In this document: one piece after another, positions 3,088 to 62,595 of the stretch | How positions within the stretch are numbered: position 1 is the first letter of the stretch | Layout of the letters: the number at the start of each line of letters is the position of its first letter | IMG/VR virus record: IMGVR_UViG_2511231028_000004 | Coordinates: 8,448-72,447 of that record | Length of the DNA stretch: 64,000 bases | DNA from: a virus | Taxonomy: Duplodnaviria; Caudoviricetes | Strand: one strand, 5' to 3' | Notes under the pieces: generated by a model | What the model was told of the DNA's origin: nothing | The model's input: only the letters and a program-made list of their open reading frames with translations | Database searches by the model: none | Program-made: the position numbers and the translations under genes

Positions 3088-3393
3088 TTAGGCCCGCAGG
3101 CGCTGTTTCTGAAGGATCGCTTCCTGGGCTTTGGGCGAGAGCTTCTTGAGCGCGTCCAGCTCCGCCTTTCGCGGGAGCGGACGGTAGAAGTCGTTGATCG
3201 TGACCTTCAGGTGTTCGGAAATCCGCAGCAAATAAAGCACGTTAACGTTGGGCTTCCGGTTGGCGATGATGTTGGAAACATAGCCTTGGCTGCATCCCGC
3301 GATCTTGGCCGCCTCCGTCACGTCCAACTCGAAAAAGTCGAGCCACTGGCCGAGAAACATCTGCGGAAGGTCTTCGTCATCATGCTTGCCCAT
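3088..3393 (-). CDS. XRE-family HTH repressor (cI-like)
   Basis: LDVTEAAKIAGCSQGYVSNIIANRKPNVNVLYLLRIS helix-turn-helix; divergent from a cro-like gene; start approximate. Confidence 0.8.
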   Translation of the reverse strand: MGKHDDEDLPQMFLGQWLDFFELDVTEAAKIAGCSQGYVSNIIANRKPNVNVLYLLRISEHLKVTINDFYRPLPRKAELDALKKLSPKAQEAILQKQRLRA

Positions 3394-3427
3394 GAGCCAT
3401 TTTAGGATGCTCGGCACCGGCGCCGAC

Positions 3428-3480
3428 GTTTCCCGGAGAAATATTGCGGCTTGACTGGAATCATTTCCGGGGGAAATACT
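3428..3480 (+). promoter_or_regulatory. Right operator pair and PR-like promoter
   Basis: GTTTCCCGGAGAAAT (3428-3442) and ATTTCCGGGGGAAAT (3463-3477); TTGACT -35 at 3451 and AATACT -10-like at 3475. Confidence 0.75.
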
Positions 3481-3487
3481 CTCACCC

Positions 3488-3703
3488 ATGTCTGATTCGC
3501 ACCCGATGCTCCGCTGGGCGGCCGAGAACGGCAAAACCGTCAAGGAATTGGCGGCCGCGGCGGGCTGTTCGGACTCGCACATGCGAAACATATTCGCGGG
3601 CCGCAAGGAAGCGTCTCTTCGGATGGCTGTGCGTCTGAGCGAGTTCTCGGGTGGGGTGGTGCCGGCTGATGCCTTCTTGCGACCCGAAGGAGCCCGCGCA
3701 TGA
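3488..3703 (+). CDS. Cro-like HTH regulator
   Basis: TVKELAAAAGCSDSHMRNIFAGRKEASLRMAVRLSE helix-turn-helix, divergent from the repressor. Confidence 0.85.
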   Translation: MSDSHPMLRWAAENGKTVKELAAAAGCSDSHMRNIFAGRKEASLRMAVRLSEFSGGVVPADAFLRPEGARA

Positions 3704-3864
3704 CGCCGCACGGGAAAGCGAACCACTGTACCCATACTCAACCCCCGCTTGTTCTTGCTTGTTTGTCCTATCCTGATGGGGGCAACAGGAACCTTCAACA
3801 GAAATCTTCACATATCCGTCAAAGTGCGGAGGATGTGTCCCGGGACGAAACAGGTTTTGCGCGC

Positions 3865-3966
3865 TCAGGTTGCGCAGCCGCGCAGGAGCGTCAGGCCGAG
3901 CGCGACCACGATCAGCGCCGCCATGCAGATCAGCGTGCGATAGCCGGTACGGTTGATGCGCTTCAT
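3865..3966 (-). CDS. Putative 33-aa single-TM peptide
   Basis: MKRINRTGYRTLICMAALIVVALGLTLLRGCAT, GC3-rich codons; below the ORF-track size cutoff. Confidence 0.4.
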   Translation of the reverse strand: MKRINRTGYRTLICMAALIVVALGLTLLRGCAT

Positions 3967-4055
3967 GAGAATTTCCCGACAGGAACAGTGCAGCGTTGCG
4001 GAGCCGTGCTGCAAGTTCGATCGACAGCGTCGCGTTGCGTGAGAGGTGCGTCAGA

Positions 4056-4328
4056 ATGTCCATGGCCGAATCGTGCACATTGCCGCCGGTGCGGCCAAGG
4101 AGAACACGAAGAAATCGATTTCTTCGAAACCTCCGGCAAGAAAATCTTCCTCCATTCGGACGCGTCTGCGTCGCGCTATTCGGCATCGACAAGCCCGGTC
4201 TCGCGCTCGCGCAGAAGGCCGGCTGCACAACGCGCCAGGCTGATCTGTACATCGACGGCAGCACGCCGCCTTCTTACGAAGCGCTCATGGTCGTGCTCGA
4301 CGAGCTGCGGCCTCGGCGGCGCGGTTGA
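4056..4328 (+). CDS. Putative HTH regulator (cII position)
   Basis: GLALAQKAGCTTRQADLYIDG resembles an HTH; located after cro. Confidence 0.5.
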   Translation: MSMAESCTLPPVRPRRTRRNRFLRNLRQENLPPFGRVCVALFGIDKPGLALAQKAGCTTRQADLYIDGSTPPSYEALMVVLDELRPRRRG

Positions 4329-4333
4329 GATAA

Positions 4334-5088
4334 TTGACGGCCGGCATGCCCGGGGGAATGCAAATGTCGGCGACCGGATCGGCCGTACCCGGCGTCCCGC
4401 CCATCCGATGGATACGATATCCGGAGGTCCGACAGGCCCGTCATTCGAATGCCGTAGCGAAAGCAACCAGAGGCAAGTCCGATCGGCTGGCAAGCCACAT
4501 GGGCCCCGTAAGACCACGGTCAATCCCGGTCGGAAGGTTGTGAGTAGGCGCGACTGCCGCGCAGCAGTCTGCCCGCGGGGTGATGAGCCCCGCGGTTCAA
4601 TTCGGGAATACCCCAGAGGCGTCAGGTACAGCTCGCAAGGCTCCCTGCGGAAAGGCCGTACGCACCTCGGTGCCGATGACCGATCCCTCGCGGCACTCAG
4701 TGCGCGCCTCGACCTTTTTGCAGGGTGGAGCAGCCCGGTAGCTCGCAAGGCTCATAACCTTGAGGCCGTCAGTTCGAATCTGACCCCTGCAACCAATTTT
4801 CGCGGTGAGGCGGGCGGCGACGCTCGCAAACAACCATCTATGGCAACGCGGCTGATGCCACCGCGCCCGCGGAGCGAGATTTCAGTTTGGGCCGCCGTAG
4901 CTACAGCAGGTGCACCACGCGGGACTGCTGCATCCCGGCTCGCTTCAGCGGGCGCGGCCCAATTCAGTTCGGACGACGGCCTTGGCATCCATCAGCCCGG
5001 GTCAATGACACGGGGTACCAGAGCAAAGGTTCAAACTCCGTCGGGAAGGGCGCGTGATCGCGCTATGTGCCCCGCCGTCGTCCGGAGC
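4334..5088 (+). ncRNA. Candidate large structured ncRNA enclosing a tRNA
   Basis: No credible CDS; many nested perfect stems (4546-52/4703-09, 4573-80/4588-95, 4801-07/4859-65, 4887-95/4954-62, 4970-80/5074-84) and GNRA/UUCA-type loops. Confidence 0.55.
4719..4795 (+). tRNA. Phage tRNA-Met(CAT), initiator-type scaffold, CCA encoded
   Basis: TGCAGGG/CCCTGCA acceptor, GAGC/GCTC D stem, CAAGG-CTCATAA-CCTTG anticodon arm, GTCAG-TTCGAAT-CTGAC T arm, ACCA end. Confidence 0.92.
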
Positions 5089-5105
5089 TTTGCGGGGAGG
5101 GCGGC

Positions 5106-5633
5106 ATGAGCGAGGCCGACGGCGATATCAAGTTCGAGCCGGCCAACATGGGTCAGGCACTCGGCGTCCTGGTCGATGTCGTCGGCTGCTACATCAGCGC
5201 CGCGCACACGGCGGCATTTGCCGACGATCGCAAGAAGTCCGCGCAGGTCAACCTTACACTGTTCCTGCACGGCCTCTGCATGCGCTCGAAGTACAAGGCC
5301 GAGACGGCCGACATCCTGGACATGGTCAGCGCTGAGCTTCGCAGGTCGACGCAAGAGGAAGCGGGCGCCGATGCAATGACCGCTGATCTCTTGAAGCCAA
5401 ACGGCAATGACGGCGTGGTCAATGCCGAGATCTGCTTCGGTTCACTCCTGCTCGTCGGCGACGTCGACGTCTCCCCGGAGATGGTCGCGACATGGGCGCA
5501 GGATCAGATGGACCTCGCCTATGACTGGGCGATGCGCGTTCATCTGCATGCCAGCGACAACAACGACGTCTTCGTCCCCGAGCGACCCGACTTCATTCCG
5601 AGATCCGTGAGGCCATCCAGCACCGATAGCTGA
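5106..5633 (+). CDS. Hypothetical phage protein
   Basis: GGGGAGG Shine-Dalgarno before ATG 5106; typical codon usage. Confidence 0.65.
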   Translation: MSEADGDIKFEPANMGQALGVLVDVVGCYISAAHTAAFADDRKKSAQVNLTLFLHGLCMRSKYKAETADILDMVSAELRRSTQEEAGADAMTADLLKPNGNDGVVNAEICFGSLLLVGDVDVSPEMVATWAQDQMDLAYDWAMRVHLHASDNNDVFVPERPDFIPRSVRPSSTDS

Positions 5634-5752
5634 AATCCTCGCGCCCAGTTCAAGTAAGCGTCACCAGCGTATCCCGACATCACCCGCAATTGCACCCGTC
5701 CGGTCACTTCCGGACGTGAGCCTCTGCGTCCCTGCAACAGGAGGGCATCTCG

Positions 5753-8185: not shown

Positions 8186-8397
8186 TGCGCCAGGATCCCG
8201 ACGAAGTCGCCCCGCTGGTCGACGCCCGCCTCGCCGAAGCGCTGCGGCAGGTCGGCCAGAGCCCGCTCGGCATGCCCGCAACCGTCGATACCTTCCGCGC
8301 CATGCTCGATCGCGCGGGGCTGGCTCTGGTGCTCAAGCACAATCCCGATTTTCGTCATTCCGGCCTGGAGCCGGTGAACATGGAGCATGACACATGA
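8182..8397 (+). CDS. Hypothetical phage protein
   Basis: 71 aa, coupled to the J-domain gene and to the DGR target. Confidence 0.55.
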   Translation: MMRQDPDEVAPLVDARLAEALRQVGQSPLGMPATVDTFRAMLDRAGLALVLKHNPDFRHSGLEPVNMEHDT

Positions 8398-9287
8398 ACG
8401 CAACTGCGAAGATTGAGGACGCCACACCGCTGCTCGCCAAGATCGACCCGGCGGCGCCGGTGCTCAAGGTCGAGGGCCTTGGCCGGTTGCAGATCAAGGC
8501 CGGCACGTTCTTCAACGGCGGCGGTTTCTCGGCCGACACCGAGGTGAAGATCACCTCGCTCGAGCCCGGGACCGACTATGTGGTGCGGATCTCGGGCGAC
8601 GGCCCGGTCGCCGTGCCCTATGCCAATCGAGGCGATGATCCGTTCATCGGTGGCTTTCACTTTGCACCAGGCGGCAATGCCGAGGCGCGCAAGGGCGGCG
8701 ACACCGTGCCGGCGATCAACCCGTACTCGCTCTGGGATCACAATTTCCGCCCCGCGTGCCTGGACCCGCGCGGCATGGTGCTGGTCGAAGCGCCCGGCCA
8801 TCGCTTCTGGTGCGATATCTACCTGACCGGCGCCGAGCATTTGGAGAACGGCACCAGCGCCTTCGACGCGCTGATCGCCGATGGCCGCGATTGCCCGACC
8901 GATCCGGCCACCGGGAGGCGGTTCAAGCGCTTCGACTACGCCGCGGCCTGCGCCGTGATGAAGCACCACGGCAAGCAGCTGCTGTCGTTCGAAGAGTTCG
9001 CCGCCGCAGCATTCGGCGTCACCGAGCGCACCGCGACGAACAGCGATCCGGTGCGAACCAACCTCGACGCCCCGCGCACCAGCAAGTTCGGCCTGATGCA
9101 GGCGGCCGGCAACATGTGGGTGTGGGGCCACGATGGCGATCCCGACGAGCCGCGCGCTTCGATCCTCGGCGGGTCCTGGTGGGTCGAGGGCGACGCGGGC
9201 TCGCGCCTCGCGGGCCTCGGCGACTGGGCGGACGACTCGGGCGAGAGCATCGGCGCCCGCGGCCGCAGTGACCACCTGCAAACCTGA
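8394..9287 (+). CDS. DGR target protein, Mtd-like C-type-lectin (FGE-type) fold with C-terminal VR
   Basis: GGFHFAPGG, SLWDHNFRP...DPRGMV, FWCDIYL, GNMWVW, ILGGSW...GARGRSD motifs as in Mtd-like proteins; VR in the last ~45 codons. Confidence 0.9.
   Translation: MNATAKIEDATPLLAKIDPAAPVLKVEGLGRLQIKAGTFFNGGGFSADTEVKITSLEPGTDYVVRISGDGPVAVPYANRGDDPFIGGFHFAPGGNAEARKGGDTVPAINPYSLWDHNFRPACLDPRGMVLVEAPGHRFWCDIYLTGAEHLENGTSAFDALIADGRDCPTDPATGRRFKRFDYAAACAVMKHHGKQLLSFEEFAAAAFGVTERTATNSDPVRTNLDAPRTSKFGLMQAAGNMWVWGHDGDPDEPRASILGGSWWVEGDAGSRLAGLGDWADDSGESIGARGRSDHLQT
9149..9272 (+). repeat. DGR variable repeat (VR) with GC-rich IMH
   Basis: Matches 9759-9882 except at 12 positions, all A in the TR; ends GGCGCCCGCGGCCGCAGTGAC. 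Confidence 0.97.
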
Positions 9288-9290
9288 TCC

Positions 9291-9310
9291 CGCGTCGCGA
9301 CAGCGACGCG
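9291..9310 (+). promoter_or_regulatory. DGR target-recognition hairpin/cruciform
   Basis: CGCGTCGC-GACA-GCGACGCG: 8-bp GC stem with a GRNA-type loop just after the target stop. Confidence 0.85.
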
Positions 9311-9334
9311 TCTCCTCGAGGTGAAGCGGATTCG

Positions 9335-9754
9335 ATGATCGTCAGGGACGACAATTCGGCGACGGAAGCCCTGGCGATCGTCGAGAAGTACGAGGCTTTC
9401 GTGACCTATCTCTATCCGATCCTGCAAAACAGTCCGCGCAAGCATGGCGTCCTCAGGGACACCGTGCTTGCCCAGATGTTCACGCCGATCGGAGGTCTCT
9501 ACCACGCGGCGAAGTCGCGGCAGATCTCGAGGCTGTTTGCGATCGATGCCGAGTTCGCCACGCTGCGCGCGCTGCTGCGTTTCCTGGCGCGCGGCGAGAT
9601 CAAGATCCTGACGCCGCATCAGCATGTCACCGCACTCGCGCTCCTGGCGCAGCCGGGCGGCATGCTGAACGCATGGCAGAAGAAGCTTGCGGCATCGGGC
9701 ACGAACAGGGTTCCGCACGCCGCCGGCGTGCGGAAGGGGGAGGCGGGGCAATGA
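9335..9754 (+). CDS. avd: DGR accessory variability determinant (four-helix bundle)
   Basis: IVEKYEAFVTYLYPILQNSPRKHG...GGMLNAW pattern; located between VR and TR. Confidence 0.88.
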   Translation: MIVRDDNSATEALAIVEKYEAFVTYLYPILQNSPRKHGVLRDTVLAQMFTPIGGLYHAAKSRQISRLFAIDAEFATLRALLRFLARGEIKILTPHQHVTALALLAQPGGMLNAWQKKLAASGTNRVPHAAGVRKGEAGQ

Positions 9755-9758
9755 TGTC

Positions 9759-9882
9759 GCCGCGCGCTTCGATCCTCGGCGGGTCCTGGTGGAACGAGGG
9801 CAACGCGGGCTCGCGCCACGCGAACCTCGACAACTGGGCGGACAACTCGAACGAGAACATCGGCGCCCGCGGCCGCAGTGAC
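9759..9882 (+). repeat. DGR template repeat (TR)
   Basis: Adenine-rich copy of the VR: 23 adenines, including 7 AAC codons in the VR frame. Confidence 0.97.
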
Positions 9883-10077
9883 GACGGCTCCGTGACTATC
9901 GCTCGGCACAGGCCACGGCCTCGCCGGCCGGTCACAGCACAACTGTGGTCAGCTCGACTCTCCTGCTTCGGCAAACACACTGCGCGGTCCGGCAGAGCGG
10001 GGCGTAGCGGCGGTTCAGCGCAGAACTGCCGTCGAGACCCGCGGCCGGCTTCAGCTGCAATTGGAATGGGGCTCGCA

Positions 10078-11076
10078 ATGACGCGACGCTACCGCAACCT
10101 CATCGGCAAGATCACCTCGCCCCGCAACATGGAGGCGGCGCTTCGCCTGACCGCCGCCGGCAAGCGGCTGACGCCTGACTATCTCGACTTCAAGGAATTC
10201 TCCGCGCTCAACCTCGCCGACCTCGGCCGGGACATGGCGAGCGGTCGTTATCGGGCCGGTGCGCCGCACGAATTCTTCATTCTCGACCCCAAGCGCCGGC
10301 TGATCCAGGCGCTGCCGTTCCGGGACCGGATCGCCCAGCAGGCGCTCTGCCTGGTCATCGGCCCGATCTTCGATGCTGCCATGCTGCCGCGCGCCTATGC
10401 CTGCCGGACCGGCAAGGGCACTCATGCCGGCGTCGTCCAGTTGCAAAGCGATCTGCGGCGGGAAGCGCGCGGCGGCGAGCTCCACTTCCTCAAGACCGAC
10501 TTTTCGCGCTACTTCGCCTCGATCGAGCGGGGCGTGCTGTGGCGGCTCATCGAGGCGAAGATCTCCTGCCGGGCGACGCTTGAGCTGATCGAGGCAATGG
10601 TGCCTCGGACGGGAACGGGACTGCCGATCGGCAGCCTGACCTCGCAAATTTTCGCCAACGTCTACGCCGGCGCCACGCTCGACCGTCATTTGCAGCAGCA
10701 TCTCGGCGAACGGCTCTGGTACCGCTACATGGACGATCTCGTCGTGCTCGGCCGCGAACCTGCGCATTTGCGCAGGTTGAAGGATGAGATCGAATCCTAC
10801 GCCGCGCGCGAGCTGGGCCTGCGCTTCTCCAAATGGCAGGTCTCCAGCGTCTCCCGCGGCATCAACTTCCTCGGCTACCGGATCTGGGCCAACCACAAGC
10901 TCTTGCGCCGAGACAGCGTCATCCGCGCCCGCCGCACCATCGCGGCCCTTCGAGCCCGCGGCGATGACGAGCGCCTGCGCGAATTCCTGGCCGCGTGGCT
11001 TGGTCACGCCAGCTGGGCCGACAGCGGCAATCTGATCAGGAGCCTCGGGTTGCCACAACAACGGGAGAACCGGTGA
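10078..11076 (+). CDS. DGR reverse transcriptase (frame open upstream to 9751 or further)
   Basis: MTRRYRNLIGKI start, PFRDRIAQQAL, LKTDFSRYFASI, GLPIGSLTSQIFAN, YRYMDD, INFLGY. Confidence 0.95.
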   Translation: MTRRYRNLIGKITSPRNMEAALRLTAAGKRLTPDYLDFKEFSALNLADLGRDMASGRYRAGAPHEFFILDPKRRLIQALPFRDRIAQQALCLVIGPIFDAAMLPRAYACRTGKGTHAGVVQLQSDLRREARGGELHFLKTDFSRYFASIERGVLWRLIEAKISCRATLELIEAMVPRTGTGLPIGSLTSQIFANVYAGATLDRHLQQHLGERLWYRYMDDLVVLGREPAHLRRLKDEIESYAARELGLRFSKWQVSSVSRGINFLGYRIWANHKLLRRDSVIRARRTIAALRARGDDERLREFLAAWLGHASWADSGNLIRSLGLPQQRENR

Positions 11077-26289: not shown

Positions 26290-26952
26290 ATGAAACCGAT
26301 CGCAGAGGCGTTGGAGAAGCTTTCGCCTGAAGTCCGCGCCGAGCTAGCGAGGCCGCACGAACGGCGAGATCCCCGCCATGCGGAGATCGTCGTCGGAAAT
26401 GACCCGCGATGGTATGTGATTGAGGTGTTCGTGTCGGCGCAGTCGGAGGTCGCCGAAGTGCTCGCTGGCCATCGTTTCGGCGTGTACATGCCCGAAGTGG
26501 AGGAAGAGATCATTAGACGCGGGCGCAAGGTCGAGCGACGCGTGCCGATGTTCTCCGGCTATCTGTTCGTCTTCATGTGGTACAGCGACCAGCACTGGCA
26601 GTGCATCAGCGGCATTCCTGGCGTCGTCGAGATCGTCGGCAGCTTGACCGATGCAGAGATCGACATCGTGCGCGCCATGGAGAACATGAAGCGTCCTGTG
26701 GTCATCGATATCGAGCCGGAGCCCGAACCAGAGCCGGTCATCCCGACGGCGAAGTCCAAAAAGAAGCGCCGATGGAAGGATCGCAAGAAAGCCAAGGCCA
26801 AGGCGAAAGCGGCGAAGCCGAAGGTGATCACGGAAGCCGATCTCCGGGCGCAAATCATAACTACCCGTGCATGGTCGGCGTTCGACGACGTACTACAGCT
26901 TGACAGCGAGGGACGGAATCAGACCTTGATGCGCGCCTTGGGCCTGTCCTAG
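26290..26952 (+). CDS. NusG-family (NGN) transcription antiterminator, late regulator
   Basis: RWYVIEV...FGVYMPEV...RRVPMFSGYLFV...ISGIPGVVEIV. Confidence 0.88.
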   Translation: MKPIAEALEKLSPEVRAELARPHERRDPRHAEIVVGNDPRWYVIEVFVSAQSEVAEVLAGHRFGVYMPEVEEEIIRRGRKVERRVPMFSGYLFVFMWYSDQHWQCISGIPGVVEIVGSLTDAEIDIVRAMENMKRPVVIDIEPEPEPEPVIPTAKSKKKRRWKDRKKAKAKAKAAKPKVITEADLRAQIITTRAWSAFDDVLQLDSEGRNQTLMRALGLS

Positions 26953-27052
26953 TACCGACCGCATCACAACGGAACGCCGGAACGGACCCCATCGAAGCAG
27001 AGTTGATGCTTCACACATCCGGCATTGTGCCCAAAGCATGCTATATCGGAAC

Positions 27053-27183
27053 GGCGCTGCGGTGGCGGAAAACGCACCTAACTGACAGACGCGAAAGTCG
27101 GCTTCGGCCGGCGAGCCGAGCGGAATGGTGATATCCGAAGGATCGGCGTATTGCAGGTTTGAGTCCTGCCCGCAGCGTTACCA
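27053..27183 (+). ncRNA. tRNA-like structured RNA without a canonical anticodon arm
   Basis: GCTGCGG/CCGCAGC acceptor-like stem, TG-GCGGAA D-arm start, GCAGG-TTTGAGT-CCTGC T arm, ACCA 3' end. Confidence 0.55.
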
Positions 27184-27220
27184 AAAGCCCGGACACGGAA
27201 ACGTGCCGGGCTTTCGCGTT
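27184..27220 (+). terminator. Intrinsic terminator-like hairpin
   Basis: AAAGCCCGG-A-CACG-GAAA-CGTG-CCGGGCTTT followed by a T-rich tract. Confidence 0.6.
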
Positions 27221-27329
27221 TGCATAGGGTGTGCGGTAGCGCGGTTCGTTGCCGCTGCCCTCCTTGGGCGTTTCCTCCCTAGACTTGGGGCGCCTCTTCG
27301 GAAGCGGCCTGATCTTTCCCCGGTGATCG

Positions 27330-27692
27330 ATGGCTGGCAGACTGCGCGTCCTTGGTCAGAAGCTGAAGCCGCCGGCACGCAACCCGCGCATCTCGGTCAG
27401 GCCGAAGGAAGCAAAGCCGTTCTATCTGTCTCCAGAGTGGAAGGCCTTGATGCGCCAGATCATCAAGGTCCGTGGCCGTAGTTGCGAAGATCAGGATCAT
27501 GACTCGGCACAGCCGCGTCATGGCGTCAGGCTCTACGGTGACCACATCGTCGAGATCGAGGATGGCGGCGCCAAGCTCGATCCATCCAACGTGCTCTTGC
27601 GTTGTGGTCCGTGCCATGGGCGCAAGACGGCAGCGGCCCGCGCGGCCCGCGCACACACCGGGGTAGGGGGGAGGTCAATCTCTGGGCCGTAG
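27330..27692 (+). CDS. HNH endonuclease (packaging-associated)
   Basis: FYLSPEWKALM...CED...DHIVEIEDGG...NVLLRCGPCHGRKT, directly before the terminase. Confidence 0.9.
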   Translation: MAGRLRVLGQKLKPPARNPRISVRPKEAKPFYLSPEWKALMRQIIKVRGRSCEDQDHDSAQPRHGVRLYGDHIVEIEDGGAKLDPSNVLLRCGPCHGRKTAAARAARAHTGVGGRSISGP

Positions 27693-62436: not shown

Positions 62437-62523
62437 TGGCAAAACCGCTCCCGTTTGCCATCCGTGCCGACTTTGCCAACCTGCGCAGGACAGAAAGTTC
62501 TTTTGTTTTCAATCGTATTCCGG
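62437..62523. other. att-arm region with putative integrase arm-binding repeats
   Basis: TGGCAAA (62437) and TTTGCCA (62454, 62472) plus an AT-rich tract beside the tRNA 3' end. Confidence 0.5.
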
Positions 62524-62595
62524 TGCCGGCTGAGGGGATTGAACCCCCGACCTTCGGTTTACAAAACCGCTGCTCTACCGCTGAGCTAAGCCGGC
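62524..62595 (-). tRNA. Host tRNA-Thr(TGT), probable prophage attachment site
   Basis: GCCGGCT TA GCTCAGCGGTAGAGC A GCGGT-TTTGTAA-ACCGA AGGTC GGGGG-TTCAATC-CCCTC AGCCGGC A; followed by CCG rather than CCA. Confidence 0.95.

Follow-up and report, generated by a model that had tools for sequence, protein, structure and literature searches.

Large, structurally complex RNAs are rare in bacteria and phages, and most of those described (GOLLD, ROOL, OLE, raiA) are without a known function. Does a prophage of an alphaproteobacterium carry another? The question is raised by a stretch of 64,000 nucleotides (nt) from a Caudoviricetes record (IMGVR_UViG_2511231028_000004, positions 8,448 to 72,447), referred to here as the window, in which an interval (4334-5088) separates a gene for a 90-amino-acid (aa) CII-like protein from the next gene of a long operon. 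An earlier note, made from the sequence without database searches, had taken this interval for a single giant RNA of ~750 nt with a tRNA embedded in it. We find that it holds two conserved RNA domains around a tRNA-Met, that the domains are separable modules, and that they appear to constitute a new class of structured phage RNA. As to function, we tentatively favour a cis-acting leader for positions 4447-5086, which we call the island.

A non-coding interval

The interval starts after the 90-aa gene (4059-4328) and stops at the ribosome-binding site (RBS) belonging to gene 5106-5633. It had been described as poor in open reading frames (ORFs), and this holds for coding signal, of which there is none, but not for the frames themselves: a 469-aa ORF (3700-5109, + strand) and several ORFs of 70-190 aa cross it. 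G+C content by codon position is flat (0.58-0.72) from ~4260 to 5000, whereas in the flanking genes the G+C content of third positions (GC3) is ~0.8, and the 469-aa ORF is therefore an artefact of high G+C content. A protein-coding reading of 4334-5088 was rejected, as the ORFs lack GC3 periodicity and Pfam or PHROG matches and the longest of them spans the tRNA. The interval is non-coding.

The minimum free energy of the 755 nt gave z-scores of -2.0 on the + strand and -1.6 on the - strand (20 shuffles). Folding energy alone is weak evidence for a structured RNA, and the support beyond chance is comparative. The six helices listed in the earlier note (4546-52/4703-09, 4552-57/4564-69, 4573-80/4588-95, 4801-07/4859-65, 4887-95/4954-62 and 4970-80/5074-84) are all present in the sequence, as are the three copies of CCAGAG at 4467, 4613 and 5018. 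Comparison with relatives supports conservation of 4552-57/4564-69, 4573-80/4588-95 and 4970-80/5074-84 and, less strongly, of 4546-52/4703-09. The broader proposal of a conserved, structured non-coding RNA of alphaproteobacterial prophages was borne out by covariation among homologues above controls, as described below.

Covariation in the 3′ domain

Our comparisons draw on ~50 loci from pattern scans of IMG/VR, GTDB genomes and metagenomes; the patterns were exact, so that the sequence sets are biased to conserved cores, and the related phages in the alignments are not independent samples. Covariance models of the 3′ domain (R1) and of the 5′ core (R2) were run on all collected loci.

In the 3′ domain (4965-5086, + strand), a P1 helix of 12 base pairs (bp) with a 5-bp extension closes a junction that carries P2/P3, with a variable tip, and a P4 hairpin. 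The junction nucleotides are invariant, and R1 scores 136.8 bits at 4964-5088. For an alignment of 20 distinct sequences, RNAalifold predicts 37 pairs in six helices, and 98.1% of the cells pair. Compensatory changes occur in 14 of the 37 pairs, a number that none of 500 shuffles reached (7.3 +/- 1.4 after shuffling); the covariation score is 0.264, compared with 0.107 for shuffled alignments and at most 0.057 when the partners are slid. Two G-U pairs are invariant while others alternate with A-U or G-C, and the invariant G-U pairs therefore place the RNA on the + strand, the same as the genes. The domain ends shortly upstream of the RBS of the next gene, which differs among relatives, or of a tRNA-Asn in one locus (L032). 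The RBS itself lies outside the conserved fold and is left unpaired by it.

The variable tip of P3 has the sequence UACCAGAGCAAAGG in three lineages (window 5012-5036, L035 and L037) and is a plain GC-rich hairpin in others. It resembles the invariant AACCAGAGGCAAAG of the 5′ domain, and the two may be a shared binding motif.

The 5′ domain and a probable pseudoknot

The 5′ domain (~4447-4712) was found in at least 29 distinct sequences. Its core (4447-4599, + strand) comprises a leader AAUGCC, an invariant GCGAAAGCAACCAGAGGCAA, a covarying hairpin, CCCGUAAGA, GGUUGUGAGUAGGCG, a hairpin at 4552-4569 that carries a CGCGC loop and, next to it, a hairpin at 4573-4595; GCGAAAGCAACC.GAGGCAA, CCCGUAAGA and GGUUGYGAGUAGGCG are invariant blocks. 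R2 scores 98.7 bits at 4443-4582. Among the 29 aligned core sequences, compensatory changes were seen in 9 of 22 predicted pairs, concentrated in two hairpins, and covariation was well above that of shuffled and slid controls. A long-range GCAACC/GGUUGC helix of the core is invariant save for a change of G-C to G-U.

One position of the leader, AAU[G/C]CC (4452 in the window), and one of the loop of hairpin 4552-4569, CGCG[C/G] (4562), switch together in all 29 sequences (7 G:C and 22 C:G; the state of L037 was read by eye). The G:C state also occurs in L051 on a backbone that is otherwise of the C:G type. Together these observations point to a tertiary pair or pseudoknot, and a pseudoknot in the 5′ domain is probable on this sequence evidence.

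The core is followed by an extension (4600-4712, + strand) that is closed by helix 4546-52/4703-09 and is common to the window and L038 and in part to genome G047. Other lineages have a different extension ending in the same closing helix, so that the helix is kept in both types. One compensatory change, from CAGG/CCUG to CUGG/CCAG, was read from an alignment of three sequences only and lends the extension weak support. The full fold of the domain, including a CCGG/CCGG helix and the extension, is partly resolved. Upstream of the core lies a hairpin-rich, lineage-specific spacer (4334-4446, + strand) for which BLAST against 300 genomes of the family returned no homologues; relatives carry unrelated hairpins here.

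Two side observations concern this domain. An exact direct repeat of 14 nt, AGCTCGCAAGGCTC, occurs at 4630-4643 and 4740-4753, each copy preceded by GGTA. The first falls within a hairpin of the extension, and the second makes up the D-stem and anticodon-stem of the tRNA; because the equivalent hairpin of L038 differs in sequence, the copy in the extension looks like a lineage-specific copy of a piece of the tRNA. In addition, a further small module with a covarying stem, ACGUGACAG-stem-GAGAGA-stem-CACC, stands at the end of many 5′ domains. It is found in L035 (two copies, 3480-3700), L043, L045-L048, L051-L055 and other metagenome or viral loci; the window is without it.

An initiator-type tRNA between the domains

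A tRNA-Met(CAU) with an encoded CCA end lies between the domains, as had been noted, at 4719-4795 on the + strand (ARAGORN; Rfam tRNA, RF00005, 64.3 bits). It has a D arm UGGAGCAGCCCGGUAGCUCG with A11:U24, GG/CC (G30-C40/G31-C39) beside a CUCAUAA loop, and the 3′ end GCAACCA. Identity is 82% to the host tRNA that bears the initiator hallmark C1xA72. Position 1:72 is U1-A72 in the window and the C1xA72 mismatch in L040 and L092. By most of these sequence features the window tRNA looks like one of the initiator type.

The same type of tRNA stands beside the modules in at least 12 loci, the sole exception being the tRNA-Asn of L032. It is placed between the domains, abutting the 3′ domain, or just after it (L092). 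In L041 and L083 the conserved (U/C)CAG ahead of P1 in the 3′ domain is provided by the CCA end of the tRNA. Of all features of the island, the link to an initiator-type tRNA is the one we can explain least. A second tRNA was considered at 4889-4962 (74 nt, with a 7-bp closing stem) and rejected, as ARAGORN and Rfam gave no match and the arms misfit a cloverleaf.

Separable modules rather than one RNA

Where both domains are present, the 5′ domain always precedes the 3′ domain on one strand, that of the flanking genes. This arrangement was found in the window, L003, L035, L037, L041, L046/52, L047, L051/53, L061+L079, L074, L076, L082, L083, L085 and L092, with 102-536 nt between the pattern-matched cores of the two domains. 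Each can also stand on its own, as seen at loci with several kb of flanking sequence. In L038 the 5′ domain leads directly into a homologue of gene 5106, and tRNA and 3′ domain are absent; in L046, L047, L051, L052 and L053 there is no tRNA, and the 5′ domain passes directly into the 3′ domain; in L032 the tRNA-Asn comes after the 3′ domain.

In the window, tRNA and 3′ domain are separated by an insert of ~170 nt (4796-4964, + strand) with two hairpin domains (4801-4865 and 4887-4962). BLAST against the 300 genomes of the family found no homologues of it; in the same search the tRNA and its flanks were matched in four genomes (G297, G027, G138 and G047). The tRNA is joined directly to the 3′ domain in L041 and L083, a metagenome contig (run X15) joins 4793 to 4965, and L003 and L040 have a small ORF in place of the insert, that of L003 with its own RBS. 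With domains that each occur alone, variable spacing, an ORF between them in L003 and a lineage-specific 4796-4964, the idea of a single ~750-nt RNA did not survive: the island consists of separable modules. The 3′ domain measures ~115 nt and the 5′ domain ~155-270 nt, and a minimal pair, the natural form seen in L051/L053, takes up ~290 nt.

Conserved sequence spans Bradyrhizobium, Reyranella, Azospirillum and Hyphomicrobiales records. Both domains are single-copy in the genome of the window, and the 3′ domain was present in 3 of 150 other genomes of the same genus, once in each, from which we take the elements to be sporadic and carried by phages. BLAST with the 5′ domain found none in 400 same-genus genomes, a weak negative, as two candidates per genome were scored. 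In a GenBank collection of phages only the tRNA was matched.

A new class with a GOLLD-like layout

The earlier note had offered two options, a GOLLD-like member or a new class. Our results speak for the second. GOLLD (RF01998) and ROOL (RF03087) gave no cmscan match at the gathering score, at E<=10 for 4100-5300, or at E<=1 in seven related loci, where Rfam 15 matched tRNAs only. C4, tmRNA, RNase P, ribozymes and riboswitches were likewise absent from the Rfam 15 scan of 4100-5300 at E<=10 with permissive filters, in which the matches other than the tRNA were at chance level (Hammerhead_II, 17.3 bits, E 1.9, - strand, 5180-5223; HIV_FS2, 17 bits; Sr006, 16.7 bits). As no Rfam family but tRNA is matched, the domains are not GOLLD, ROOL or RNase P RNA.

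RNase P RNA had been a candidate in its own right, since GAGGCAAGUCCG recalls conserved region CR-I and CAGCCCGGGUCAA recalls CR-V, and it was rejected. RF00010 matches host rnpB (contig C175, 308 bits) and not the locus, local alignments of each domain to host rnpB score within the range of shuffled sequences, and the likeness of GAGGCAAGUCCG to CR-I goes no further than a short string.

Like the island, ROOL and GOLLD are ornate, non-coding RNAs that phages or prophages carry close to tRNAs (10.1101/2024.12.08.627333; PMC5737381). In GOLLD a conserved 3′ region and a variable 5′ region are joined by a linker that sometimes carries tRNAs, and one member lies downstream of a Met-tRNA (10.1101/2024.12.08.627333). 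The layout here is analogous, but either domain can be missing, and in size the RNA comes to a third to half of GOLLD; GOLLD and ROOL range from 580 to more than 800 nt, compared with ~290 nt for the minimal pair. The island further differs from both in that its domains are separable, can be split by an ORF, occur in GC-rich Alphaproteobacteria, and have a fixed position after a CII-like gene in the early operon. To judge from their sequences, then, the two domains are a new class of phage structured RNA whose layout resembles that of GOLLD (5′ domain, tRNA linker, 3′ domain) but is modular.

Position behind a CII-like gene

The window lies on a contig (C214) of a 7.8-Mb genome, and the neighbouring genes have close homologues annotated in Bradyrhizobium. 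Window positions 1 to ~62000 are prophage, and the + strand carries nearly all genes from 3488 on. A cI-like repressor gene (3088-3798, - strand; Pfam/PHROG) is divergent from a cro-like helix-turn-helix (HTH) gene (3488-3703, + strand; Pfam HTH_3/HTH_31 and PHROG transcriptional repressor families). Upstream of the cro-like gene is a PR-like sigma-70 promoter match (3451-3480, + strand; TTGACT-18-AATACT, 9 of 12 positions, a consensus match only), the sole promoter-like site that a simple consensus scan returned within 3300-5700. The same scan, insensitive for alphaproteobacterial promoters, found no promoter- or terminator-like site on the + strand inside 4334-5088, and no boxA- or boxB-like nut sequences were seen by eye. 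The gene after the island has an RBS GGGGAGGG from 5095, an ATG at 5106 and its end at 5633 (175 aa, + strand); it shows a GC3 signal, and Pfam and PHROG searches gave no match.

The 90-aa gene itself (4059-4328, + strand) encodes a predicted XRE-type HTH of four helices behind a disordered, Arg-rich N-terminal tail. Its product is a CII analogue by position. All 27 homologues, of ~90 aa, are named "hypothetical" and none has a Pfam domain. The AlphaFold model has a mean predicted local distance difference test (pLDDT) score of 78.6, with residues 31-80 above 90. Foldseek gave weak likeness (E>=0.4) to a phage 186 transcriptional regulator, C proteins, P22 c2 and 434 Cro, of the XRE/Cro/CII HTH type only, and no antiterminator fold. 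In an alignment, the tail (window 4059-4150, RPRRTRRNRFLRN) is conserved in its Arg-rich character and is predicted to be disordered. It recalls the arginine-rich RNA-binding motifs known from N-type antiterminators.

tblastn with the window proteins placed the modules directly downstream of homologues of the 90-aa gene. As a check independent of the RNA motif, loci were collected via the 90-aa protein alone. All five distinct loci have the layout cI-like gene, cro-like gene, 90-aa gene and then 350-740 nt without a credible gene, and each of these gaps contains at least one module (3′ domain in four, 5′-like domain in four, tRNA-Met in two). Other settings occur for the 5′ domain. It lies right after a Cro-type HTH gene in L059 and after methylase or terminase-like genes in L055, L067 and L062. 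In L068 (8867-9680) the operon position differs from that in the window: the 5′ domain stands between a NusG-paralogue gene and MarR-like and terminase genes, as a late-operon leader.

A cis-acting leader?

By analogy with known phage and plasmid leaders, we slightly favour the possibility that the island is a cis-acting leader that keeps transcription going over that of a stable processed RNA, and put its probability at roughly 0.35. Transcription would begin at the PR-like promoter and run in the sense direction through 4447-5086 within the early rightward operon (cro-like gene, 90-aa CII-like gene, island and ~55 kb of + strand genes). The domains would fold while they are being transcribed and exert a cis effect on the transcribing complex, and RNA polymerase would thereby cross the long untranslated island into the downstream operon, by an anti-Rho mode or by processive antitermination like that of HK022 put, EAR or conAn2. 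The Arg-rich CII-like protein from the upstream gene might assist, and normal tRNA processing would cut out the tRNA and so punctuate the transcript. Most likely, the island exists as part of the early transcript, cut at the tRNA.

Several observations lead us to this preference. The place of the island is fixed, close to the start of 55 kb of genes that point in one direction, and a gene for an Arg-rich protein lies just upstream. The consensus scan gave no promoter- or terminator-like site inside it on the + strand, and one PR-like site at 3451-3480. The structure is conserved, on the strand of the genes and in constant 5′-before-3′ order, with modules in five of five protein-fetched gaps. 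The 5′ domain of L068 follows a NusG paralogue, and the window phage has one too (26290-26952, PF02357). Finally, put and conAn are precedents.

The putL and putR sites of HK022 lie downstream of early promoters and act as RNA (PMC9378689). Like the island, they are structured RNA on the sense strand downstream of temperate-phage early promoters and are indifferent to the genes that follow (PMC9378689), and the same position is seen here, in sense orientation behind the PR-like site at 3451-3480. A put site is ~70 nt with two stem-loops, whereas the domains are ~115 and 155-270 nt with junctions and a probable pseudoknot; there is no sequence likeness, and no terminator is evident downstream of the island. 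In conAn, a small protein gene (ConAn1) and the 260-600-bp RNA region downstream of it (conAn2) form the front end of a very long, unidirectional operon (PMC8191782). The likeness to the island is in this gene-plus-RNA layout only: conAn belongs to Gram-positive conjugative plasmids, has no tRNA, and its conAn2 is poorly conserved, whereas the island domains are highly conserved. In lambdoid late leaders, such as that of 933W between Q/PR′ and stx, tRNA genes are embedded in the leader and excised from the transcript, so that the island and these leaders share a phage tRNA within an operon leader. Those leaders are not known to contain conserved multi-helix RNA domains or tRNAs of the initiator type. 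In kind the island is closest to GOLLD and ROOL and in position to the put, nut and conAn leaders; its sequence, fold, size and modularity set it apart from each of these.

Other results weigh against a cis-acting leader. The 1.5 kb downstream of modules show no excess of intrinsic-terminator-like hairpins (0.15 versus 0.14 per kb), and along the operon such hairpins are at the level of shuffled sequence. Each domain can be absent, and the 5′ domain also follows methyltransferase and terminase-like genes. Two structurally unrelated domains and a tRNA exceed the needs of an antitermination site, and the constant association with an initiator-type tRNA is left unexplained. Judged by its predicted fold, the upstream protein resembles an ordinary DNA binder of the XRE/CII type.

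The island could instead be the gene for one or more stable, trans-acting phage RNAs of the GOLLD/ROOL kind, released from the early transcript by tRNA processing, a reading that we rate only slightly lower. RNase P would act at the 5′ end of the tRNA, with 3′ trimming, and the folded RNA might, for instance, assemble into a higher-order particle or engage the translation machinery together with the phage initiator tRNA. Complex folds with many invariant unpaired nucleotides and a probable pseudoknot suit such an RNA, as do the sporadic, single-copy, prophage-carried occurrence (3 of 150 same-genus genomes), the tRNA-Met that at least 12 loci have between the domains or next to them, and the independence of the modules from the following gene; the two-part layout of GOLLD with tRNAs in the linker offers a parallel (10.1101/2024.12.08.627333). 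The reading is harder to reconcile with the lack of a GOLLD or ROOL match at permissive thresholds, with a simple consensus scan that detected no promoter or terminator of its own, with a minimal pair of just ~290 nt, and with domains that are not obligate partners and can have an ORF between them (L003). We consider improbable a narrower proposal in which the two domains and the phage initiator-type tRNA make one functional unit, a new GOLLD-like class that holds, presents or regulates the initiator tRNA or assembles into a higher-order RNA particle, so that the phage would control translation initiation or protect its early transcript; the 3′ domain might then generate the CCA end of the tRNA.

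It is also unlikely that one or both domains are RNA-processing elements, self-cleaving ribozymes or dedicated RNase substrates, that would cut the polycistronic early transcript, set the 3′ end of the tRNA or protect the 5′ end of downstream mRNA. HDV-like "theta" ribozymes are found directly downstream of phage tRNAs, and a bead-like array of modules and tRNAs in any combination would agree with processing, as would the size, junction and invariant nucleotides of the 3′ domain, which fit small ribozymes, its end always just before the next RBS or tRNA, and its (U/C)CAG flank provided by the tRNA CCA in L041 and L083. Rfam ribozyme families are without a match, however, the Hammerhead_II near-match (17 bits, E 1.9) being on the opposite strand, and at most loci a gap of 80-170 nt separates the 3′ domain from the tRNA, or no tRNA lies near it. 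Its place just upstream of an RBS in most loci, and its invariant junction nucleotides, would also be expected of a riboswitch-like element or a protein-binding translational operator of the following gene. This we hold to be very unlikely: a tRNA follows in L032 and L092, the RBS is outside the conserved fold and unpaired by it, known riboswitch families are without a match in Rfam 15, and the downstream gene varies among loci, which makes a gene-specific riboswitch unlikely. Least credible of all is that the hairpins act as DNA, as a replication origin, single-strand initiation signal or recombination site, or are chance structure. GC-rich DNA does fold well on both strands (z -2.0 and -1.6), and the phage encodes a primase and a D5-type helicase. 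But the compensatory changes are far above controls, conservation extends across Bradyrhizobium, Reyranella, Azospirillum and Hyphomicrobiales, the position is that of an early leader 15 kb from the replication genes, and the invariant G-U pairs would be A-C mismatches on the opposite strand, a pattern that makes a role as DNA unlikely.

Other features of the prophage

The prophage also encodes DUF5131 and ParB-like proteins, a methylase, the primase, D5-helicase and NusG paralogue mentioned above, and terminase, portal and protease. The NusG paralogue is followed by a second gene-free leader, of 370 nt, that precedes the late genes (window 26290-27330). A strong hairpin and then TTCGCGTTT (~27183-27225) are found in it, together with an Rfam suhB/mmgR match (27250-27324, 58 bits), and the leader looks like a late-operon antitermination leader. 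The early region contains a complete diversity-generating retroelement (DGR) cassette (8394-11076), composed of an Mtd-like target gene (8394-9287), bAvd (9335-9754), a Phage_DGR RNA (9901-10049; Rfam, 83.5 bits) and a reverse transcriptase gene that ends at 11076. A tRNA-Thr(UGU) is encoded on the - strand at 62522-62595, close to where the + strand gene array ends on the right, and is a possible attachment site of the prophage.

Implications

The island adds two strongly covarying motifs whose place in the genetic switch region is fixed, in temperate phages that infect Bradyrhizobium and further Alphaproteobacteria of soil. Both are small enough for structure determination and reporter assays, and since the phages that carry them have standard cI/cro switches, their function is genetically testable. 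If the domains modify elongation, they would be a new class of RNA-based antitermination beyond the enterobacterial and Gram-positive examples. If they are instead parts of a stable trans-acting RNA, they would be a compact relative in kind of GOLLD and ROOL, and could make the tRNA link of those RNAs testable.

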